This document shows, piece by piece, positions 5,077 to 63,329 of a DNA stretch of 64,000 bases. Positions within the stretch are counted from its first letter, which is position 1; every line of letters starts with the position of its first letter. A model generated the notes under the pieces. The model searched no databases and was not told the origin of the DNA. It saw only the letters and a list, made by a program, of their open reading frames with translations. The translations under genes were made by a program, and so were the position numbers. Source of the DNA: an uncultured bacterium. GTDB lineage: Bacteria > Chloroflexota > Anaerolineae > B4-G1. Where the stretch lies: NCBI GenBank assembly GCA_965612745.1, contig CBFDTD010000002.1:36-64035 (forward strand), read 5' to 3'.

Positions 5077-6842
5077 TTGGGGATGGTGAAATAGAACCGG
5101 CTGCCCGCGCCGGGCTGGCTCTCCACGCCGATGCTTCCTCCGTGGAGGCTCACCAACTGACGGGCGATGTACAGCCCCAGGCCCACGCCGGCCGGACTTC
5201 GCCCGGTGCTCAGGGTGTAGAACCTGTCAAAGATGTGCTCCTGCTCTTGCGGCGGAATGCCAGGCCCATCGTCCTGCACACTTACTTCTACGGCTTCTTC
5301 CCGCTCCCGCACGCTTACCTGGATGTGACCGCCCCTGGGAGTGAACTTGTGGGCGTTGGAGAGCAGGTTATTGAGCACTTGCTCGATACGCCGCCGGTCC
5401 ACAGAGACCGGGCTGAGACGCGGTGGCAGATGCAGGGTGACCCTTTGCTGCCACTCCTCCGTCAGAGGAACGAAGGCCTGCACCGTACGTTTCACGAGGG
5501 CACGCAGGTCGGTGGGTTGCCGGCTGAGGGTCACTTGCCCCGCCTCCAGCCGGGTGACTTCCAGAAGGTCGGCGACCAGTCCCTCCAGTCGTTTGGCATG
5601 GTGCTCGATAGTCTCCAGCAACTCCCGACGCATCTCGGCGGAGCAAGCCTCTCCCTGCTCTCGCAGCAACGCCAGCGAGGTCATCAGAATGGTCAAGGGG
5701 GTGCGCAGTTCGTGGGAGACGGAGGAGACGAAACCGGCCTGAAGCCGCTCCAGCGCCTGCAACTGCTCCACCTGCCGCTTTTCGGCCTGGTAGAGGCGGG
5801 CGTTGCGCACGGCGATAGCCGCCTCCTGGCCCAACGCGCTGAGGAACGTCAGGTCTTCCGCGCTGTAGTCGCGGGGCTCACGGTGGCCGACGTCCAGGAA
5901 GCCGATGGGCCGGCCGTTCAGGAGCAGGGGCACCGAGGCTCCGCAGACGATGCCCTCGTGCTGTAGCGTGGTCAGGAAAAGGCGATACTGCTCCGGGGGA
6001 GAGAAGGACGGCGCAAAGACGTAGGGCCGGCCTGTTTCGAGCATCGTTGTCACTAGTTCGTCCTCCATCGGCCAGCGCACATCGGCCAGAGATACGCTGT
6101 CCATCCCGTGCACCGCCGCCGGCCGCAGGCGACGCCCGTCCTCCTCAACCAGGGAGACAAACGCGACGTCCGCCTCCAGGACGCGGCAGGAGGCCGTGAC
6201 CACCGTCTGTAGCACGTGCTGGAGATCCAGGCTGGTGCTCAATTGCTGGAAAATCTCGTTCAGGGCGGTGAGGCGGGAGACCAGTGCTCTCTCCCGCTCC
6301 GTCTCCTGACGCTCCTGGCGGAGTTGCTCCAGGAACAGGGCGCACAGGATGGCGACCAACGGCAGCAGTGCCGATTTGACCACCACGCTGTAGATAGTGT
6401 AAGGAAACTGATGGCTGGCCGGGTTGAGTAGGCAGATGGTGACGTACAGGACGTGGAGCAGCAGGGCCACGACGACGGTCTGCACCAGGTTCAGGTAAAA
6501 AGCGGCACCGGCGACGATGAAATAGAAGATGACGAAGAAACTGGAGTGGAAGCCCCCTGTCAGGTAGATGGCGACGGCGGCGACCAGCGCGTCCAGGGCC
6601 AGGAGGTTGAGGGGGCGGCGGGGCCAGACGAAGAGGCGACCCAGTGCCTGCATCAGGAGGTTGTAGACGACGACGGCAGGGAACACGGTGGACATAGGGA
6701 GCAACACGCCCACGGTGAAGGGATTGAAGAGGGAAAGGATGAGGACCAGCAGCAAAGCCAGCCAGCGCAGGCCCATGAAAACGGTGTCTTTCCCTCTGGG
6801 ACGGAGGAGATACGCCTTTAAATCCTTGATTCTCCCTATCAT
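5073..6842 (-). CDS. sensor histidine kinase with N-terminal multi-TM region and GAF domain
   Basis: H-box HELRTPLT, HATPase_c G-boxes (GGSIGVES...GSRFYFTIPK), hydrophobic N-terminus. Confidence 0.9.
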   Translation of the reverse strand: MIGRIKDLKAYLLRPRGKDTVFMGLRWLALLLVLILSLFNPFTVGVLLPMSTVFPAVVVYNLLMQALGRLFVWPRRPLNLLALDALVAAVAIYLTGGFHSSFFVIFYFIVAGAAFYLNLVQTVVVALLLHVLYVTICLLNPASHQFPYTIYSVVVKSALLPLVAILCALFLEQLRQERQETERERALVSRLTALNEIFQQLSTSLDLQHVLQTVVTASCRVLEADVAFVSLVEEDGRRLRPAAVHGMDSVSLADVRWPMEDELVTTMLETGRPYVFAPSFSPPEQYRLFLTTLQHEGIVCGASVPLLLNGRPIGFLDVGHREPRDYSAEDLTFLSALGQEAAIAVRNARLYQAEKRQVEQLQALERLQAGFVSSVSHELRTPLTILMTSLALLREQGEACSAEMRRELLETIEHHAKRLEGLVADLLEVTRLEAGQVTLSRQPTDLRALVKRTVQAFVPLTEEWQQRVTLHLPPRLSPVSVDRRRIEQVLNNLLSNAHKFTPRGGHIQVSVREREEAVEVSVQDDGPGIPPQEQEHIFDRFYTLSTGRSPAGVGLGLYIARQLVSLHGGSIGVESQPGAGSRFYFTIPK

Positions 6843-9496: not shown

Positions 9497-10687
9497 TCAC
9501 GGGCAGCGCACGATGTCCTGTGCCCACAGGCAGTCGGCACAGGAGGGACACCAGCCCCAGCAGCCCTCGTTGGCCTCGGTGATGTCGCACGTGTCCCGCA
9601 GGTCGCAGTCCACGCAGGAGGGGAAGTTGAAGCGGCGCACCTCGGCGCGGAAACGGACGTACTCATCGGAGGTCCAGATCTCCGCCAGGGTGGCTTCATT
9701 GACGTTGCCCAGGGTGTAGCGGGTGACCTCCTTGCGGCGACCAAAGATGTAATAGGGATAGGAGTGGGAGAGGGCGTAGCAAGGGCTCACGCCACCATCC
9801 CAGCCTATCACCGGCGCATTGCTGGCGATGAAGCGGCAGCGCCGCTCCGCTCCCCAGTTCATCCTCGGCAGTTCCAGCGTGCCCCAGAGGAGCCAGTCGC
9901 CGCTTCTGACGGGCCAGCCGGTAGAGAGGGGCAGGGGTGGGGTCTCGTCCCGACCATACAGCGTCTCGGCCGCCATCTCGGGGGTGTGGGGCAGGACGTG
10001 AGTCACGATGACCCGGTTGGCCCCCAGCCGCCGGGCCTGCTCCATCACGGCAGGCAACTCGGCCACGTTACTCTTCAGCGCCACGAACTCGATCCCCAGA
10101 CGGGGGAACGAGGTCCCCCGCTCCGCCTTGATGCGGTTGAGGGTCTCGATGTGGCCCAGCACCGTCCGCAGGTCGGCCCCCCGCCGCACGTCGGCGTAGG
10201 TGTCCGGGTCGGCCCCGTCCAGCGAGACCATGACGACATCCACCCCCAGGTGTACCAGCGCCTCGGCCCGCTCTTCGTCCAGCAGCGTGCCGTTGGTGCT
10301 GACGGTCACCTTGAGGCCCAGGTCCTTGACCGCTGTCAGAAAGTCCAGGATACGGGGGTGGACGAAAGGCTCGCCGTAGCCGCCGAAGACCACCTCGCGC
10401 AGTTCCGGCAGGTCCCGCAGTTGGGCCACGACCCGCTCAAAAGTGGCCGGCGGCATATCTTCCAGCGGCTCATTCCACACGTTGCGCACACAGGTGCGGC
10501 AGTGAAGGTTGCAGCGCGTGGTGGCCTCCAGGTAGACCTTGCGCACATCGGGACGGAGAGGGTGGAGCACCAAGCCGGTCTCCGTCTCCTCCAACAGCAC
10601 TTCGCCGCCGGCCTCCCAGCCATAGCGGCGGCGAAGTGCGGTAGGAATCGTCAATCGTCCGTTGGCATCAAGATTCACTCTGGGCAA
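9497..10687 (-). CDS. radical SAM/SPASM-domain peptide-modifying enzyme with N-terminal AbrB/SpoVT-like swapped-hairpin domain
   Basis: CNLHCRTC (CxxxCxxC) radical SAM motif; Cys-rich C-terminal SPASM region (CYALSH...CVDCDLRDTC...CWGWCPSCADC); N-terminal ~45 aa (GRLTIPTALRRRYGWEAGGEVLLEETETGLVLHP) resembles AbrB/MazE; TTG start 6 nt after a GAGGAGG Shine-Dalgarno. Confidence 0.85.
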   Translation of the reverse strand: MPRVNLDANGRLTIPTALRRRYGWEAGGEVLLEETETGLVLHPLRPDVRKVYLEATTRCNLHCRTCVRNVWNEPLEDMPPATFERVVAQLRDLPELREVVFGGYGEPFVHPRILDFLTAVKDLGLKVTVSTNGTLLDEERAEALVHLGVDVVMVSLDGADPDTYADVRRGADLRTVLGHIETLNRIKAERGTSFPRLGIEFVALKSNVAELPAVMEQARRLGANRVIVTHVLPHTPEMAAETLYGRDETPPLPLSTGWPVRSGDWLLWGTLELPRMNWGAERRCRFIASNAPVIGWDGGVSPCYALSHSYPYYIFGRRKEVTRYTLGNVNEATLAEIWTSDEYVRFRAEVRRFNFPSCVDCDLRDTCDITEANEGCWGWCPSCADCLWAQDIVRCP

Positions 10688-54720: not shown

Positions 54721-56361
54721 ATGGCTCCAAGCATGTTCAACCTCACCGGCAAGACCCTCGGCAAGTACCGCCTCATCGAGAAACTGGGCCAGGGTGGGAT
54801 GGCCCAGGTCTATAAGGCCTACCAGCCTGACTTGGACCGGTACGTCGCCATTAAGGTTCTGCACCCCCACCTGACCGGCGACGAGGATTTCGCGGCCCGC
54901 TTCCGGCGGGAGGCCCGCGCCGTCGCTGTGCTTCAGCACCCCCACATCGTCCGCGTCTACGACTTCGACACCGACGAGGGGCTGGCTTTTCTGGTGATGG
55001 AGTACCTGGAAGGGATCAATCTTAGAGAGCGACTGCGTGACCTGAACTGCCATGGGGAGTTGATGGATCTGGAGGAGGTGGGGCGCATTGTGGGTGCGCT
55101 GGCCGACGCGCTGGATCACGCCCATCGTCAGGGATTGGTGCACCGGGACCTCAAACCCTCCAACGTAATCATCACCGCCGACGGACGCCCGGTGCTGACC
55201 GACTTTGGCATCGCCCGGATGGTGGATGCCACGGTCATCACCGAGAGCGGTGGCACGCTGGGCACGCCAGCCTACATGTCGCCTGAGCAGTGCCGAGGGG
55301 AGCCTGGTGATGCTCGCTCCGATGTCTACTCCCTGGGGGTGCTGCTGTACCGACTCTGCACCGGGCGCGTCCCCTTCGACGCCGATACCCCCTACGCGAT
55401 CATCCTCAAGCACATCACTGCGCCGCTACCCCCACCTCGTTCCATCCGCCCGGAGTTGCCCGAGGCCGTCGAGCGGGTGATCCTCAAGGCGCTGGCCAAA
55501 GATCCCGGCGACCGCTACCAGACGGCGGGTGAGATGGGGCGTGCCCTTCGCGTCGCCCTCGAAGCACCTCCGGCCACGCCACCTCCCTCCCGCCACCGCG
55601 TCATCTTGCGCGGCGCTCTTGACGCTGCCAATGAGTGGTTTCAGACGGTGCTGCCCACTTCTCGACGCCGTGGCCTCCTGCGCACCGCAGCGTTGATCGC
55701 TGCTACCAGTGTTATGTGCCTGCTTCTGTTGCTCGCCACCCGCCCTTTTCGGATACGACGTTTCCTGGCTCATCTCACCCCCCCACCTGCCCCCGAAACA
55801 GGTCGCGCCACGCTGATTCTCGCAGGACCTGACGTGGTGGCCGATACCTGGCTTAACCCCGACCTGCCCGACGAAACTTGGCACGAGACCGACCTGGTGC
55901 ACCTGCAAGGCCCGCTCACCCCTGATCGGCTCCTGTTCCGCTTTGACTTGGCCGACTTGCCCGTTGACGCCACCGTCATCTCGGCCACGCTCACGCTGCG
56001 GGTGGAACTATGGGGCGATCAGTCCTTCCCCGGCGCCGCCGTCGTCTACCGGGTGCTGACCCCCTGGGAGCCCGCCATGGCAACCTATAACGAGCCGTGG
56101 AGCGCGCCGGGCCTCGTCGCCGGCGTAGATTACGACCCCACGCCGCTCGATGTCGCCCCCGTACCCGACGCGGGACACCTGACCTTTGATGTAGGCCGGG
56201 CGCTGGTATCGTGGCACGAGCGGAGCGAGCCCAACTACGGCCTGGTGGTGATGATGTCGGAGGACAGCCACAACCAAGCCCACCATTGGGTCTACATGAG
56301 CGAGCAGCCCGACCCCGCCGATCGGCCCACATTGCGCATCGCCTATGAGGTGGCGCCGTAA
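54721..56361 (+). CDS. Hanks-type Ser/Thr protein kinase with single TM and about 180-aa extracytoplasmic C-terminal domain
   Basis: GQGGMAQVYKA, VAIK, HRDLKPSNV, DFGIA, GTPAYMSPE; TM region LIAATSVMCLLLLLA. Confidence 0.9.
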   Translation: MAPSMFNLTGKTLGKYRLIEKLGQGGMAQVYKAYQPDLDRYVAIKVLHPHLTGDEDFAARFRREARAVAVLQHPHIVRVYDFDTDEGLAFLVMEYLEGINLRERLRDLNCHGELMDLEEVGRIVGALADALDHAHRQGLVHRDLKPSNVIITADGRPVLTDFGIARMVDATVITESGGTLGTPAYMSPEQCRGEPGDARSDVYSLGVLLYRLCTGRVPFDADTPYAIILKHITAPLPPPRSIRPELPEAVERVILKALAKDPGDRYQTAGEMGRALRVALEAPPATPPPSRHRVILRGALDAANEWFQTVLPTSRRRGLLRTAALIAATSVMCLLLLLATRPFRIRRFLAHLTPPPAPETGRATLILAGPDVVADTWLNPDLPDETWHETDLVHLQGPLTPDRLLFRFDLADLPVDATVISATLTLRVELWGDQSFPGAAVVYRVLTPWEPAMATYNEPWSAPGLVAGVDYDPTPLDVAPVPDAGHLTFDVGRALVSWHERSEPNYGLVVMMSEDSHNQAHHWVYMSEQPDPADRPTLRIAYEVAP

Positions 56362-56383
56362 TGGAGAACGCGCTTTGTCTGGT

Positions 56384-56992
56384 ATGATGGGCGAGGGCAT
56401 CCCTTATCTGATAGATGCAGCGGGGCGGCAGTTCCCGCTGGAAGGCGGAGTGGTCATACTGGGCCGTTCTCCCAATTGCGACGTTATCATTCCTGACCAG
56501 CGGGTCTCCCGGCGCCACGCCGAGGTTCGCTGGGATGGCGAAACCGCCACACTGTGTGACCTGGGCAGCGCCAATGGCACTTTCCTCAACGGACGCCGCA
56601 TCACTACCCCTCAGACGTTGCACGACGGCGACGAGATTGGTATCGCCAGTGCCCTCTTCTCCTTCCGCGACCCCGAGGCCACCATTCGCGTAGCCGAGTT
56701 TCCTCGGCTGGTGGTGGACGAGGCCACAGGCGAAATCTGGGTCAACCGGAACCCCATCTCCCTCTCCCCCAAGGAACAAGCCCTGTTCGATCTGCTCTAC
56801 CACAACGTTGGCCGTGTATGTTCCAAGCAGAGGATCGCCGAGGCGGTTTGGCCGGAGTACCAGGCCGAGGTGTACGACTACCAGATTGAGAGCCTGGTCA
56901 AACGGCTGCGCGAGAAACTGGAGCCCGACCCGCGCCACCCTGTGCTGATCCTCACCGTGCGTGGGCGGGGATACAAACTGATCATTTACTGA
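56384..56992 (+). CDS. FHA-domain protein fused to an OmpR-type winged-helix DNA-binding domain
   Basis: FHA (VILGRSPNCDVIIPDQRVSRRHAEV...GSANGTFLNGRRI) followed by a trans_reg_C-like region (LSPKEQALFDLL...LVKRLREKL...VRGRGYKL). Confidence 0.8.
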   Translation: MMGEGIPYLIDAAGRQFPLEGGVVILGRSPNCDVIIPDQRVSRRHAEVRWDGETATLCDLGSANGTFLNGRRITTPQTLHDGDEIGIASALFSFRDPEATIRVAEFPRLVVDEATGEIWVNRNPISLSPKEQALFDLLYHNVGRVCSKQRIAEAVWPEYQAEVYDYQIESLVKRLREKLEPDPRHPVLILTVRGRGYKLIIY

Positions 56993-57394
56993 TCGCTAAT
57001 CCTCCAACTGTTGGCTAATTGTTGGCTGCAGGTTGGGCGGGCCGGCGCCAAAGACGGTATCCTTGAGGCAGAATCCGTGCCATCCTGCCCATCCGTGGTT
57101 CTCAGCACGAAAGTGGTTGCCGTGGATCACTACAACGAATTTGGAATAAAACGAATGGCTGGGTGAAGAAGAATCCGTTGGTTTCTCAATTCGCTGTAGT
57201 GTTGTCGCTGTAGTGTTGCTGGGGCGAAAAGCGGGCTTTCCGAGAAGGCTCTCACCGCGAAAGGAGGCGATGTCCCGTGTGACCGACCACTAGGCAGGCG
57301 TCGGCTGCGCTACCCGTAGCCATGCCGATCAGAGGCACGACTGCAACCTGCCCCGCCATTTGGGGCATAGCCACGATTGAAAGGAGAATTTCAA

Positions 57395-59770
57395 ATGAAC
57401 AGGAAATGGATACTGGCTGCTATTCTAACTCTGGGTCTGCTGGCAGTCACAGCGGCCGTGGCTCTCTCATGGTCGGATGTAGACCCGGCGACCGGCGCTG
57501 GCCCCGACTTCATGATCTCCCTGCCGCTGGACGACCAGGCCGCCCCCTCTGTGGCCTACAACTCGGATGATGATGAGTATCTGGTGGTCTGGTGGGACGA
57601 GCGCCCTGGCACCGACGACGCGGACATCTACGGCCAAATCTTCTCCGCCAGCGGCATCCCCCAGGGCGACAACTTCGTGGTCTCCAGCGCTGCCGACGAG
57701 CAGGGTTACCCCCACGTCGCCTACAACTCGACCGACCATAACTACATGGTGATATGGCGCGACAAGCGAAGCGGCACGAACTACGATGTATACGGCCAGG
57801 TCGTCAACACCGACGGCACCCTCTCAGGCACCGATTTCGCCATCAATACCGATGCCGGAGATCAGAAGCCCAAGGACATAGTCTACGATCCCAACGCCAA
57901 CCATTACCTGCTGGTGTGGGTGGACGATGGCGAGAACCGGATCGAGGGGCAACTGCTAGATAACGTGGGAGGACTCATCGGCACCAATGCTTTCCCCATC
58001 GCCGCTGGCGGTGACCGCCCACGGGTGGCCTACAACAGCAACCGCAACAGTTACATGGTCGTCTACGAGCAGGGAGGCGACATCTACGGCCAGGCCATCG
58101 CCGGTGACGGCTCACTTTCTGGCTCCACCTTCGTCGTCTGCGACGACTCTTCCGAACAGGCCACCCTCGATCTGGAGTTCAACTCCAACACTCACGAGTA
58201 CCTGGTCGTCTGGCGGGATGAGCGCAATGGCAACTGGGACATCTACGGTCGGCGCATAGACGAGGACGGCAATCTGCAAGGAGATGAGATCGTTATCTGC
58301 GACGACGCCGCCGGCCAGTACGGCCCGGAGGTGGCCTACAACGAACGGGTCAACCAGTGGCTGGTGGCCTGGGTTGATCATCGGAACCTGGACACCAGCG
58401 GCACAGACATCTACGGCCAGCGGGTGCGGGGGTCCGACGGGAGCCTGGCTGGGCAGGGCAACTTCGCCATCTGCGATGGCCCTGACGACCAGAGGAGCGT
58501 GGCGCTGGCCGCCCGGCCCACTTTGTTGGGTGCCGAATACCTGGCGGTGTGGGAGGATCAACGCAGCGGCGACGGGCTGGAGATCGTCGGACAGCGCGTC
58601 GGTGCGCTGCTGGGTACGCTCAACTGGCACGATGTCAACATCTCCGCGCCGCTGGGGAGCCAGGAGCACCCCCGCGTGGCCTACAACTCCACTGATCGGC
58701 AGTTCCTCGTCGTCTGGCAGGACGAGCGCGACGGCAACTCGGACATCTACGCCCAGATCGTGCTCACCACCGGCATTCCCATCACCGATAACATCGTCGT
58801 GCGGGACGAGGCTCACGAATTAGTGGACCCCGTCGTGGCCTATAATCCCTACGCCAATACCTACCTGATTGCCTGGGAGGACGAAACAGAGGGAGACATT
58901 GAGGGTGTCATCCTCGAACATGACGGGGACCTCGCCGGCAGTGCCTTTGACATCTCCGCCGGGGATGATGCGCGTCAGAACCCGGCCGTGGTCTTCAACC
59001 CGGATGTCAGTTGGTACCTGGTCGTTTTCGAATACCAGACGGAGGATGGGAAGGACATTTATGGCCGCCATGTGGAGGCTGACGGTGACCTGCCCGGAGA
59101 CGACTTCCCTATCTCCACAGCGAACGGCGACCAACTCTTCCCGGATGTGGTCTACAACGACTATGACGACGCATATCTGGTTGCCTGGAGCGACACACGA
59201 GACGACGAGGGCGACGTCTATGCCCGGCGGGTGCTCGTCAACGAAACCGTTCTCGATGAATTCGCCATCTCCACGGCCAACGACGCTCAGACTTGCCCTG
59301 CCCTGGCCTGGAACGAGGACGACAACGAGTACCTGGTGGTCTGGCACGACTACCGGGACTCCGGCACCACCGGCGCCGACATCTATGGCCAGCGGTTGAG
59401 TAATACCGGCGGCCTGGAAGGGGACAACTTCGCCCTCTGCACCGCCTCGGACCACCAGATGTATCCTCGTGTCAACTACATCAGCGCTTATGGCCGCTAC
59501 TTCGTCACCTGGCAGAGTGGGAGTGATGCCACCAGTTGGGACATCTACGGGCAGAACGTGAACGCCGATGGTAGCCTCTATCTTGGTAACGTGCCGCTCT
59601 TCGTCTTCTCCGGCTACCAGCAGCGGCCCGATGGGGCCTTCAGCCCGGAGGCCGATCGTGGGCTGACGGTGTGGCAGGATGGGCGCAACGGCGCCACCTT
59701 CAAGATCTACGGTCGCATCAAGGAGCCGCGGTTCCCCGTCTACCTGCCGCTCGTGCTGCGCAATTACTGA
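57395..59770 (+). CDS. secreted protein with about 16 tandem ~48-aa repeats (P.VAYN...YLVVW.D.R.G..DIYGQR...DG...G) and C-terminal tail RFPVYLPLVLRNY
   Basis: signal peptide; highly regular repeats; start at ATG 57395 after AAAGGAGAA. Confidence 0.8.
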   Translation: MNRKWILAAILTLGLLAVTAAVALSWSDVDPATGAGPDFMISLPLDDQAAPSVAYNSDDDEYLVVWWDERPGTDDADIYGQIFSASGIPQGDNFVVSSAADEQGYPHVAYNSTDHNYMVIWRDKRSGTNYDVYGQVVNTDGTLSGTDFAINTDAGDQKPKDIVYDPNANHYLLVWVDDGENRIEGQLLDNVGGLIGTNAFPIAAGGDRPRVAYNSNRNSYMVVYEQGGDIYGQAIAGDGSLSGSTFVVCDDSSEQATLDLEFNSNTHEYLVVWRDERNGNWDIYGRRIDEDGNLQGDEIVICDDAAGQYGPEVAYNERVNQWLVAWVDHRNLDTSGTDIYGQRVRGSDGSLAGQGNFAICDGPDDQRSVALAARPTLLGAEYLAVWEDQRSGDGLEIVGQRVGALLGTLNWHDVNISAPLGSQEHPRVAYNSTDRQFLVVWQDERDGNSDIYAQIVLTTGIPITDNIVVRDEAHELVDPVVAYNPYANTYLIAWEDETEGDIEGVILEHDGDLAGSAFDISAGDDARQNPAVVFNPDVSWYLVVFEYQTEDGKDIYGRHVEADGDLPGDDFPISTANGDQLFPDVVYNDYDDAYLVAWSDTRDDEGDVYARRVLVNETVLDEFAISTANDAQTCPALAWNEDDNEYLVVWHDYRDSGTTGADIYGQRLSNTGGLEGDNFALCTASDHQMYPRVNYISAYGRYFVTWQSGSDATSWDIYGQNVNADGSLYLGNVPLFVFSGYQQRPDGAFSPEADRGLTVWQDGRNGATFKIYGRIKEPRFPVYLPLVLRNY

Positions 59771-59774
59771 GCAC

Positions 59775-59816
59775 GCCAGGGCCGGGCGCTGGCTCGCGCC
59801 GCCCCCCGGCCCTGGT
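59775..59816 (+). terminator. GC-rich hairpin CCAGGGCCGGG...CCCGGCCCTGG followed by TCACGTTTC
   Basis: 11-bp inverted repeat directly after the stop codon. Confidence 0.6.
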
Positions 59817-59858
59817 CACGTTTCATGCATCACGTTTCACGCGACAGGAGGTGAACCG

Positions 59859-61658
59859 ATGAAAAAGCAACCATCCCGCCGCATCACCCGCCGTGAATTC
59901 CTCATCGGCGCGGGGGCCGCGCTGGCCGGCGCGGCGCTGGCCTGTGGACGGGAGCGCCCCACCGCCACCGCCGTCCCCGCCCTCACTCCCGTTTCCACTC
60001 ACACCCCGGCTCCCATCATCCCCACCGCCCCTCCGGAGCGGGCCACCGACCTGGTGCTTATGAACGGCAAAATCATCACCGTGGATCCTGCCGACACTAT
60101 CGCCCAGGCGGTCGCCGTCAAAGACGGCCTCATCCAGGCGGTCGGGAGCGATGGCGACGTAGCGCCCCTGATCGGCGAGGCGACGCGGGTGGTGGACCTG
60201 GGCGGTAGGGCCGTCACCCCCGGCCTGATTGACGCCCACAATCATCTACAAATACTGGGCCTGCTGCAGGGCTTCTACGTGCCCCTGATGCCGCCGGAGG
60301 TCAGGTCAATCGAGGATATGCAGGCCCGGCTGGCCGAGGTCGTGGCTCAGACGCCCGAAGGGGAATGGATCATGGGCTACTTCCTGGCCCTCGGACGGCT
60401 GCCCAATCGGCATGACCTGGATCCTGTAGCGCCCAACCATCCGGTCTGGCTTATGCAGCAAGGTGGACACTACGGCTCGGCCAACAGCCTGGCGCTCCAG
60501 ATCGCCGGCATCACCGCCGCCACACCGAATCCGACCGGCGGCGTCATCGAGCGGGACGCCAACGGCGAGCCGACCGGCGTCTTCTACAACCACCGGGCGA
60601 TGGACCTCCTGCGGCGGTACATTCCCCGCTACACTCCGGAAGACGTGCGGAACAACATCGCCTACGCCCAACCCATCTTCGCCGCCGCCGGCGTCACCAC
60701 TTTTCACGACAACAACGTGCGCGGCACGGACACCGTAGCGGCCTACTTCGACACCGACCGGGAAGGGAAGATGCTGATCCGTGGCCAGGTATACTACACG
60801 CTGGAGTGGCCGAGGGACCTGGACAGGGCACTGCAGGAGGTCGAATACTACGAAGGAAACGGCCTTATGCGCTTCGCCGGCTTTAAGTTCTTGCTCGACG
60901 GCCAGGTGCACATGGCTTACTGCCACGAGCCCCACAACGGCGTGCGCTGGGACATGCCCACCTGGGACCCGCAGACCTTCAAAGAGGCCGTCCGCGCCCT
61001 GCACGACACGGGCTTGCAAATCTGCATCCACTGCGTTGGCGACGCGGCGGTGGACCTGACGCTGGACGCCTACGAGGAGGCGATGAATGCCAATCCCCGC
61101 CCCGACCCGCGCCACCGCATCGAGCATTGCGTCCTTTGCACGCCGGAGGCTACCCAACGCATGAAGGACCTGGGAGTGGTGGTCAGCACCCAGCCGCAGT
61201 TCATCCGTCTGGGAGGAGATGTGTGGCCGACCATATTCGGCGAGGAACGTATGTCGCGGGTCATAGTCACCCGCGAGTGGCTGGAGGAGGGCGTCGTCGT
61301 GGCCTTGGGCTCCGACGCGCCGACCACCCCCTGGCTGACGCCCCAGGTGACCCTCTTCGGCGCTGTGCGGCGCGCCACCTATTCCAAAGAGCAGGTGGGC
61401 CCCGAGCAGTGCCTGACCGTGCAGGAGGCGCTGCGGGCGCACACAATGGGCTCCGCCTACGCCGGCTTTGAAGAGGATGTCAAGGGCTCCATCGAGGTGG
61501 GCAAACTGGCCGACCTGGTCGTTTGGAGCGAGGACCCCTACACCGCTTCGCTCAAGCGGTTATGGCAGATCCCGGTTGACGTGACGCTCGTCGGGGGGAA
61601 AATCGTCTACCAGAGCGGGGATACCTCCCTCCTCCCGCGCCGGGCGGGGGACTTGTGA
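59859..61658 (+). CDS. TAT-exported amidohydrolase-family (amidohydro_3) metal-dependent hydrolase
   Basis: [21 protein letters not shown] twin-arginine signal; GLIDAHNHL metal-binding motif; AGGAGGTGA Shine-Dalgarno. Confidence 0.85.
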
Positions 61659-61689
61659 ACGTAGAGCCGCCAGCCCCGTCGTCCTGGAC

Positions 61690-61898
61690 CCTGACCACCA
61701 GCACGCCGATACCTACCTCTGGGACTTCGGTGACGGTGACCAGAGCGAGAACCCGGAGCCGATGCACGCCTACTGGAGCGGTGGGACGTACACCGTCACC
61801 CTGACCGCCGGCAACGTGTGCGGCAGTGACCAGGCCACGGCGACGATCACGGTCCGGCGCTGCGTCTATCTCCCGCTCGCGCTCAGGGACTACCAGTA
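61690..61898 (+). pseudogene. orphan fragment encoding the C-terminal part of a PKD domain (WDFGDG...) plus tail CVYLPLALRDYQ; no start codon or N-terminal region
   Basis: manual translation; frame is continuous with amidohydrolase 3' DNA but out of frame. Confidence 0.4.
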
Positions 61899-62000
61899 GC
61901 CCTTCCGACGCGGGCACAAGCGCGAGGGGCTGCCCCCCAGGGGGCAGCCCCTCGTGGAGCCAACCAGAGGCATGCGCAAACTCATACCCGCCCCTCTTTG

Positions 62001-63329
62001 TCAGACCGTAATTCGTCCCAACCGCTGCACCAGCACTTCCTCCAGCGTTGGCTGGCCGATGACCTGGAGTTCGTACCGCACCCGGTCTACCGGGTGGCGC
62101 ACGTTGATCAGCCGCCGCAGGTCAATGGGCGTGGCCACCAGCACCAGGTCGCACTCGACCATATTGATTGTCTCCTCCAGATCCCGCACCTGGCTCTCGC
62201 CATATCCCATCGCGGGCAGGAGCGGGCCGACATGCGGGTACTTCTCGAAAGCGGCGGCGATGGAGCGGACGGCGTAGGGGCGGGGGTCCACCAACTCCGC
62301 TGCGCCGAATCGGCGGGCTGCCACCACTCCAGCCCCGTAGGCCATCTCCCCGTGAGTCAGCGTGGGGCCATCCTCGACGACCAGCACCCGCTTGCCCCGG
62401 ATCGCCCGCGGATCCTCGACGAAGATGGGGGAAGCGGCCTCCACCACGACGGCCTGCGGATTGACCGCGTAGACGTCCTCCCGCACCTGGGCCACTCCCT
62501 CAGGGCTGGCCGTGTCCACCTTGTTGATGACCACCACGTGCGCGGCACGCAGATTGGCCTCGCCGGGGTGATAGCGCAGTTCGTGACCAGGCCGGTGAGG
62601 GTCTGCCACCACTATGTGCAGGTCGGGATGGAAGAAGGGGAGATCGTTGTTTCCCCCGTCCCAGACCACCACATCGGCTTCTTCCTCCGCCTGGCGCAGG
62701 ATGCGCTCGTAGTCCACCCCGGCATAGACCACCACCCCCCGATCCAGGTGCGGCTCGTACTCCTCTCGCTCCTCGATGGTGCACCTGTTACGCTCCAGAT
62801 CCTCGTAGGTGGCGAACCGCTGCACTGCCTGGGTGGCCAGGTCGCCGTAGGGCATCGGGTGGCGAACCACCACCACTTTTTTGCCCATCCGCTGGAGTAC
62901 ATCGCAGACGTGCCGGGTGGTCTGGCTCTTGCCGCAGCCAGTGCGCACGGCACAGACGGCGACGACCGGCTTGCGGCTCTGGAGCATCGTCGCACCGCTC
63001 CCCATCAGCCGGAAATCGGCCCCTGCAGCCAGCACCTGTGAGGCCCTGTGCATCACGTACTCGTGGGAGACGTCGGAGTAGGCGAAGACGACCTGATCCA
63101 CCTGGTAGCGGCGGATCAGGTCGGTCAGTTCCGCTTCGGGGTGAATGGGAATACCATCCGGGTACAGGTTCCCAGCCAGTTCCGGCGGGTAGCGACGTCC
63201 CTCGATGTTGGGAATCTGGGTGGCGGTGAAGGCGATGATCTGATAGTCCGGGTTGTCGCGGAAGTAGACGTTGAAGTTATGGAAGTCGCGCCCGGCGGCG
63301 CCCATGATGATGACGCGATTTGCGGCCAT
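62001..63329 (-). CDS. P-loop protein resembling cyclic 2,3-diphosphoglycerate synthetase / DUF1611 family (tentative)
   Basis: about 440 aa; GCGKS P-loop-like motif; start trimmed to MAANRVIIMGAAGRDF. Confidence 0.55.
   Translation of the reverse strand: MAANRVIIMGAAGRDFHNFNVYFRDNPDYQIIAFTATQIPNIEGRRYPPELAGNLYPDGIPIHPEAELTDLIRRYQVDQVVFAYSDVSHEYVMHRASQVLAAGADFRLMGSGATMLQSRKPVVAVCAVRTGCGKSQTTRHVCDVLQRMGKKVVVVRHPMPYGDLATQAVQRFATYEDLERNRCTIEEREEYEPHLDRGVVVYAGVDYERILRQAEEEADVVVWDGGNNDLPFFHPDLHIVVADPHRPGHELRYHPGEANLRAAHVVVINKVDTASPEGVAQVREDVYAVNPQAVVVEAASPIFVEDPRAIRGKRVLVVEDGPTLTHGEMAYGAGVVAARRFGAAELVDPRPYAVRSIAAAFEKYPHVGPLLPAMGYGESQVRDLEETINMVECDLVLVATPIDLRRLINVRHPVDRVRYELQVIGQPTLEEVLVQRLGRITV

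Follow-up and report, generated by a model that had tools for sequence, protein, structure and literature searches.

A gene on the forward strand of contig CBFDTD010000002.1 (assembly GCA_965612745.1), from an uncultured Chloroflexota bacterium of the class Anaerolineae, encodes a predicted secreted protein of 791 amino acids (aa). The protein contains a long run of repeats, predicted to fold as a beta-propeller, and closes with the ten residues FPVYLPLVLR, hereafter the YLP-box, followed by Asn-Tyr and the stop codon. The gene lies in a stretch of 64,000 nucleotides (nt), analysed as a whole and called here the window. The features in and around it are collected in Table 1.

Table 1. Features of the window in and around the propeller gene, with window coordinates.
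Feature	Coordinates	Strand	Basis
Ser/Thr protein kinase with one transmembrane segment and an extracellular DNRLRE domain (predicted)	54721..56361	+	NCBIfam kinase models; NF033679
FHA domain fused to an OmpR/PhoB-type winged helix, no receiver domain	56345..56992	+	Pfam FHA and Trans_reg_C (orthologous loci); NCBIfam
Three direct repeats (TGTTGG, TGTTGG, GGTTGG) at an exact spacing of 11 bp; candidate operator	57009..57036	.	Conservation
Gene of the predicted secreted 791-aa protein, with 14 predicted beta-propeller blades and the YLP-box tail	57395..59770	+	ORF, Shine-Dalgarno sequence, homologue N-termini
Predicted signal peptide (about aa 1-25, MNRKWILAAILTLGLLAVTAAVALS)	57395..57469	+	Basic N-region, hydrophobic core, AVA/ALS-type cleavage region
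14 contiguous repeats of ~52 aa (aa 46-776), each predicted to form one four-stranded blade	57530..59722	+	Repeat HMM, AlphaFold2, Foldseek
YLP-box (F780-R789, FPVYLPLVLR), then N-Y and stop (59768-59770)	59732..59761	+	NF050076 alignment, homologue conservation
Amidohydrolase (Amidohydro_3) with Tat-like RRxFL and lipobox-like N-terminus	59859..61658	+	Orthologous loci, NCBIfam
Probable pseudogene remnant: last PKD domain (N-terminally truncated), VYLPLALR (61864-61887) and stop	61660..61899	+	Translation

The propeller gene and the predicted fold of its product

In the six-frame list of open reading frames (ORFs), the long frame on the + strand extends from a TTG at 57377 or an ATG at 57395 up to 59770. 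The ATG is the likely start of the 791-aa product, because a Shine-Dalgarno sequence (AAAGGAG, 57381-57387) precedes it at a spacing of 7 nt and close homologues of the protein begin at the corresponding MNRKW. The ORF, the Shine-Dalgarno sequence and the homologue starts agree exactly with the coordinates given by an earlier reading of the letters alone (the sequence-only reading), which had also recognised a signal peptide. The N-terminus, MNRKWILAAILTLGLLAVTAAVALSWS, is laid out like a Sec signal peptide and was modelled by AlphaFold2 as a helix (residues 2-25) of lower predicted local distance difference test (pLDDT) values. Export of the protein is expected from this Sec-type signal, and the exact cleavage site would fall in the AVA/ALS-type region. 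The C-terminus is RFPVYLPLVLRNY, followed by the stop. An exact-sequence lookup of the 791-aa protein returned no database record, and a database search gave 851 homologues, of which the named ones all belong to Chloroflexota or Anaerolineae metagenome-assembled genomes (MAGs). The homologues occur in two main forms, one of about 800 aa and one of about 1100 aa with C-terminal PKD domains; PKD domains stand ahead of the tail in about a third of the family.

The repeat region had been described as about 16 units of about 48 aa. This count has to be corrected: the units anchored on DIYGQ number 14 and are spaced 47-58 aa apart, and a hidden Markov model (HMM) built from them finds 14 contiguous domains over aa 46-776 (independent E-values of 1e-15 to 1e-28 each), giving a period of about 52-53 aa. 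The repeat pattern, whose consensus is Q..P.VAYN....EYLVVW.D.R.....DIYGQR....G...G..F.I, is far beyond chance; the same HMM gave zero matches on 200 shuffled copies of the protein. An alignment of 67 homologues was made and AlphaFold2 was then run. The resulting model is all-beta (pLDDT 91.9, predicted template modelling score 0.88) and consists of the N-terminal helix, 57 beta-strands, four per repeat, and an unstructured tail. The 50 best Foldseek matches are tandem propellers, including EML/UTP WD40 pairs, LRP6 and GH74. Taken together, model and matches support a beta-propeller, one of the two folds that the sequence-only reading had considered. On the structural matches, the most likely arrangement of the 14 predicted blades is that of two seven-bladed propellers.

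The profile check of the protein against Pfam returned nothing at E ≤ 1 except noise, and so no usable family for the repeats. Homologues carry a precomputed PF22847 (Glyco_hydro_43_rel) label, which is only 'faint' and was not used. The best repeat-level match in NCBIfam was TIGR04275 (beta_prop_Msarc; E 1e-8, 4 stretches), with 34.8 bits (cutoff 85) and an alignment limited to model positions 18-34 of 40; the propeller protein is not a member of that family. The sole solved relative found by sequence profile in the PDB is the Chromobacterium lectin CV39L (6gxs, E 1.1e-6), a weak match with a best stretch of 21.8 bits and no similarity beyond the repeat core. This lectin, of the seven-bladed PropLec7C type, has L-Fuc and Man as its ligands (PMC11186620). 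The PropLec7C lectins BP39L and CV39L share with the window protein a repeat period of ~50 aa, a YLV.WQD-type strand motif and the predicted beta-propeller fold; however, they form one seven-bladed propeller (376 aa, about 39 kDa) as compared to 14 blades in 791 aa, and they carry no YLP tail. Because of this weak relationship, the best functional guess is that the propeller protein may be a glycan- or ligand-binding surface protein.

A separate observation concerns blade 13 (aa 682-737, window 59057-59600). When the window was compared with a contig of the same species (L002; L and P numbers are our labels for loci and homologous proteins), 54 of the 138 differences fell in ~550 bp at this blade. 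They include 22 amino-acid replacements, all inside the one blade, and the window version lacks the W.D.R motif. The patch looks like the product of recombination or conversion.

The YLP-box in Chloroflexota proteins

In the AlphaFold2 model the tail F-P-V-Y-L-P-L-V-L-R is disordered (pLDDT 43-58) and lies outside the predicted propeller fold. The sequence-only reading could match it to no named C-terminal sorting (CTERM) signal, a statement that does not hold against NCBIfam release 20. Two of its models, NF050076 'sort_motif_YLP' (11 positions) and NF053834 'ultrashort_CTERM' (10 positions), carry the description 'YLP-box putative sorting motif-containing protein', and the tail (aa 780-789) is precisely the part to which they align. 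The window protein has in common with these entries the VYLPLVLR consensus, the near-terminal position, the predicted signal peptide and the Chloroflexota host. By its sequence, then, the window tail is an instance of a signal already catalogued by NCBI, yet uncharacterised, and VYLPLVLR-NY-stop is its commonest form in our genome and metagenome scans. The consensus of the YLP-box is aromatic-x-[VI]-[YF]-L-P-[LV]-[VI]-[LV]-[RK]-x(0-4)-COOH.

The eight attributes of C-terminal sorting domains set out by Haft 2023 (bioRxiv 10.1101/2023.06.07.544157) were used as tests of the tail. Among the propeller homologues, about 103 of 120 listed ones keep the tail, at identities between 96% and 30%, and they do so whether propeller or PKD domains come just before it. 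The signature was counted on 108 listed homologues with a near-terminal x-L-P motif. The Pro is present in all 108 by construction, since it was required by the search; Leu is found in 97 and Tyr or Phe in 98. In the flanks, position -1 is V or I, position -3 is aromatic or His, and position +7 is R or K. Mostly 0-3 residues follow the R/K, the whole range being 0-4; they vary, with N, S, G or D as the most frequent, and in 11 of the 108 tails the R/K is itself the last residue.

The position of the motif was determined in metagenomes with the pattern [VIM]YLPLVL[RS], which makes no requirement for a stop. Of 127 matches, 124 could be assessed, and a stop lay 0-4 codons after the motif in 97 of them (peak at 2-3 codons), as compared to about 21% by chance. 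Independent loose matches in genome loci gave a similar picture (26 of 37 with a stop within 0-4 codons), and in the window protein the distance from the motif to the end is 2 residues. About a fifth of the unbiased matches are non-terminal; some of these, in short ORFs or with Ser for Arg, are chance matches.

The genome scan with [VI]YLPLVLR-xx-stop gave at least 117 loci. Among the matches listed, 80 were titled, and 77 of these are Chloroflexota (Anaerolineae, Anaerolineales, Thermoflexales, Thermoflexia and 'Chloroflexia' MAGs); the remaining three look like chance matches. Also among the matches listed, the MAG CAZHAX01 has at least 6 matches to one narrow pattern, spread over 3 contigs; a further 11 or more MAGs, about a dozen, have 2-3 matches each. 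The window itself contains one intact copy and one remnant: a six-frame search of its 64 kb found two in-frame copies of the tail, in the propeller gene and in a PKD fragment downstream, besides two out-of-frame chance matches.

The proteins that carry the YLP-box are diverse. When judged by a crude hydrophobic-segment rule, 53 of 70 complete carriers have an N-terminal hydrophobic signal. The 108 carriers fall into 30 similarity groups, and 5398 of their 5778 pairs (93%) have no BLASTP match at 1e-8. The domains represented are right-handed beta-helix, VWA, PKD, DUF4394, peptidase and propeller. This result supports the occurrence of the YLP-box on hundreds of unrelated, putatively secreted Chloroflexota proteins.

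In some propeller homologues the place of the YLP-box is taken by other modules: P0102 and P0112 end in Por_Secre_tail, the type IX secretion system (T9SS) sorting domain, and P0098, P0104 and P0119 end in SLH domains. Choice-of-anchor Q and X domains stand directly before YLP tails. Choice-of-anchor domains are named for their habit of preceding differing sorting signals. These comparisons show the YLP-box to be a conserved, position- and lineage-specific motif of unrelated, predicted exported proteins and, as far as homologous sequences tell, interchangeable with known surface-localisation modules. The suggestion of the sequence-only reading that the tail is a shared C-terminal signal is thus borne out, and the tail, far from occurring at only two loci, recurs across many Chloroflexota loci.

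The box also occurs inside proteins. The order X - YLP-box - PPC recurs in L142, L131, L108 and L154, where PF04151 gives 27.8-54.1 bits as compared to a cutoff of 25.9; in L199, too, an internal box is followed by a PPC domain or other extension. Four members of the propeller family (P0028, P0030, P0041 and P0042) have an internal YLP-box, and the ORFs of L213 and L151 have it 70-90 aa after their start, before a GHL10 or CAP domain.

The commonest single carrier is a secreted family of ~90-120 aa with the pattern ...YDLSWxTVDGGGG...GGYTLxGGFWGGxxxxYx[VI]YLPLVLRxx, present in L004, L012, L025, L035, L040, L051, L057, L062, L074, L078, L084, L087 and others. It matched no Pfam or NCBIfam family, and in several loci it adjoins large regulators of the SARP/BTAD-AAA-TPR type.

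Neighbouring genes and the PKD remnant

Directly upstream of the propeller gene lie a Ser/Thr protein kinase gene and a gene for an FHA-winged-helix fusion. The C-terminal DNRLRE domain of the kinase (aa 403-540) scores 52.8 bits with NF033679 as compared to a cutoff of 34. In 5 of the 6 loci examined the pair immediately precedes the propeller gene, including the locus of a homologue of 35% identity; in L242 two propeller paralogues follow it. The TGTTGG-type repeats sit just after the stop of the FHA-winged-helix gene and are conserved in L002, L001 (about 9857-9885) and L241 (about 5567-5595), while the rest of the spacer cannot be aligned in the orthologous loci at 70% and 60% protein identity. 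From their sequence and position, the repeats look like the operator of the FHA-winged-helix regulator. Operator-like repeats after the regulator gene suggest that the propeller is the output of the pair, and its expression is probably controlled by the kinase and the FHA-winged-helix protein through these repeats.

Downstream, the amidohydrolase gene is found beside the propeller gene only in close relatives and is absent next to the 60% and 35% homologues; therefore, it is probably not part of the system. Its N-terminus has a twin-arginine motif and then a lipobox-like LAC, which suggests a lipoprotein exported by the twin-arginine translocation (Tat) pathway. The longest ORF call (from 59679) overstates its length.

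The PKD fragment opens in frame directly behind the amidohydrolase stop (61658) and consists of the last ~75 residues of a PKD domain and the tail; the first strands are absent. It ends in CVYLPLALRDYQ, and its tail, RRCVYLPLALRDYQ (longer stretch ITVRRCVYLPLALRDYQ), runs to the stop at 61899, which confirms the second copy reported by the sequence-only reading. There is no start codon before the PKD core and no signal peptide, the only internal ATG leaving 45 aa. The fragment retains the PKD-like core WDFGDG...YTVTLT (a stretch matches TIGR00864 with E 1.7e-9), and weak PF00801 and PF18911 matches were obtained on the identical ORF of L002. The YLPLALR variant was detected by neither NF050076 nor NF053834. 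The fragment is identical in L002 (GCA_029933215.1), which is of the same species as the window (98.8% identity over 11.7 kb), and is absent from the orthologous locus L001 at 70% identity. The arrangement of last PKD domain, short linker and YLP-box recurs in at least 13 other Chloroflexota loci, where it ends many large proteins. The most plausible reading is that another YLP-box gene has decayed here and left only its 3' end.

Probable role of the YLP-box and alternative explanations

On these sequence comparisons, we consider it rather probable that the tail serves sorting or retention at the cell surface, whatever the mechanism. The propeller protein would be exported by Sec, and its tail would then be recognised at the outer face of the membrane by a dedicated envelope component that keeps the protein on the cell surface. 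The T9SS sorting domain (PF18962) and SLH (PF00395), both absent from the window protein in the Pfam search, occupy the same terminal slot in propeller homologues, which indicates that this slot is a place for a surface-localisation module. They differ from the YLP-box in that they are folded, of 45-80 aa and with known machinery or ligands, whereas the YLP-box is a disordered decapeptide.

The mechanism can be proposed only tentatively. An enzyme may cut in or after the motif, discard the 0-4 residues or the PPC domain and attach the protein, a sortase-like logic without a membrane-spanning segment; we hold this possible, though short of probable. Docking of the tail, non-covalently, on a receptor of the envelope, sheath or S-layer seems more doubtful. 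The sequence after the YLP-box may be a leaving group, and the internal boxes fit cleavage-type processing slightly better than binding specific for the C-terminus. As possible as the cleaving enzyme, and likewise short of probable, is a new type of sorting pathway, found only in Anaerolineae and Thermoflexia-type Chloroflexota, with the YLP-box as its substrate signal. Its reader would be unrelated in mechanism to sortase, exosortase/archaeosortase, rhombosortase and myxosortase; the tail would possibly be caught as the last segment leaving the Sec channel, with PPC as leaving group.

The closest comparison is with the tripartite systems LPXTG/sortase, PEP-CTERM/exosortase, PGF-CTERM/archaeosortase, GlyGly-CTERM/rhombosortase and MYXO-CTERM/myxosortase. 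The YLP-box resembles their signals in its invariant-Pro signature, its C-terminal position, the many unrelated signal-peptide carriers per genome and the presence of other sorting signals on homologues. Attributes 1-3 and 6-8 of the Haft 2023 list are found in it. Unlike these signals, it has only 3-4 hydrophobic residues and a single R or K after the Pro and sometimes precedes a folded PPC domain.

Several points weigh against a sorting role. The tail has no segment of transmembrane length (only L-V-L follows the Pro, in a tail of 10-13 aa) and no basic cluster of 2-5 residues, having a single R or K; therefore, the mechanism of the characterised CTERM systems cannot apply directly. Since the box is sometimes internal, a free C-terminus is not strictly required. 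As to the catalogue entries, which themselves say no more than 'putative', the full-length window protein stays under the curated cutoffs: NF050076 gives 9.6 bits as compared to a cutoff of 15, and NF053834 reports nothing. The isolated 26-aa tail reaches 14.6 bits with NF050076 and 13.0 bits with NF053834 (cutoff 10), and many perfect VYLPLVLRNx tails in other long proteins likewise stay below the curated cutoffs, at 11.3-14.4 bits; the models are at the limit of what ten residues can score. A literature search found no paper on 'YLP-box' or YLPLVLR in bacteria, and none that is experimental; the Haft 2023 preprint does not mention the YLP-box.

The machinery that might read the tail gave further points of this kind. 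The sequence-only reading had proposed a sortase- or exosortase-like partner, and none was found in the window, at the syntenic loci or recurrently beside other YLP genes. The 10 membrane ORFs of the window contain no processing enzyme or receptor, being TauE, ABC-2, ArsP, PMT_2/YfhO, PlsY and a methyltransferase (transporters, glycosyltransferases and PlsY), and no protease or transpeptidase stands beside the propeller gene in orthologous, syntenic loci. Clustering of the ORFs (634, then 1244) from about 240 YLP-containing loci (about 1.5 Mb, 222 YLP genes) showed that no non-regulatory family recurs beside the 222 genes; the recurrent non-YLP neighbours are only regulators, namely histidine kinases, FHA proteins, SARP-like ATPases and PP2C. 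Because the genes of sorting enzymes and of their substrates often lie apart, the neighbourhood negatives do not refute an enzyme.

Three candidate mechanisms were considered and rejected. L,D-transpeptidases with LysM and YkuD domains, the only transpeptidase-type family among the neighbours of YLP genes, occur in 3 of the about 240 loci (including L205), too few for a partner to be named, and would need a Lys amine, where Arg dominates the motif. An asparaginyl-endopeptidase-like cut at the Asn after Arg is at odds with an Asn that is not invariant and with the 11 tails that end at R/K. In an outer-membrane beta-signal residues alternate, a pattern not seen in the tail.

The strongest alternative to surface sorting or retention, itself unlikely, is that the tail is a tag for proteolytic maturation or turnover, read by a tail-specific protease of the S41/Prc type or used as a pro-domain site, so that the carriers would be trimmed or degraded and not retained. 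A hydrophobic near-terminal peptide would suit such a protease. The recurrent X - YLP-box - PPC order and the internal boxes in the propeller family point the same way, PPC domains being normally removed from secreted proteases (Pfam description, PF04151). However, the variable final residues are a poor fit with PDZ-type recognition of a free C-terminus, trimming of 0-4 residues has no obvious value for maturation, and both the exchange with T9SS and SLH domains and the position behind choice-of-anchor domains point to localisation.

A C-terminal secretion signal of a non-Sec pathway akin to type I secretion is much less probable still. The C-terminal location and the large, repeat-rich, extracellular carriers would agree with it, but classical N-terminal signal peptides are predicted for the window protein and the 53 carriers mentioned above, and no pair of ATP-binding cassette (ABC) transporter and membrane fusion protein (MFP) is conserved beside the gene in orthologous loci. 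To our knowledge, moreover, C-terminal secretion signals are all far longer than a 10-aa motif.

Two further readings are effectively refuted: a structural role of the tail (propeller closure, oligomerisation), and a sequence that it has in common with the PKD fragment by chance or local duplication. In the unit alignment EPRFPVY does sit in place of the fourth strand of blade 14; but the F-x-I strand motif comes from the N-terminal strand DFMISL, the model, of high confidence, leaves the tail disordered, and the same motif ends beta-helix, VWA, PKD, peptidase and ~100-aa proteins. Local duplication is excluded because the two window copies, which stand in unrelated contexts, differ at 8 of 30 nt, including the synonymous changes tac/tat, ctg/ctc and cgc/agg. 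A signal at the DNA or RNA level (a terminator, for example, or a repeat element), which the location at 3' ends of genes might suggest, is refuted by wobble positions that use all four bases (186 distinct DNA versions among 251 matches); since these positions vary freely, selection acts on the peptide. Conservation is also frame-specific, and there is neither an Rfam match in 56900-62100 nor a terminator-like site at 59770.

The result obtained in the window is mostly confirmatory, in that it rediscovers a signal already modelled by NCBI curators and unpublished in the literature searched. All characterised prokaryotic C-terminal sorting signals that we know of consist of a motif, then a transmembrane helix, then an Arg cluster, and the YLP-box departs from this architecture. 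In sediments, hot springs and wastewater sludge, Chloroflexota are abundant as filamentous bacteria; their envelope and surface display are poorly understood. In them the YLP-box marks a large and diverse set of predicted exported proteins, including adhesin-like beta-helices, PKD stalks, peptidases and the propeller described here. To find the reader of such a sorting-type signal, which lacks a membrane anchor, would be to delimit the surface proteins of the lineage and might reveal a new chemistry of sorting.

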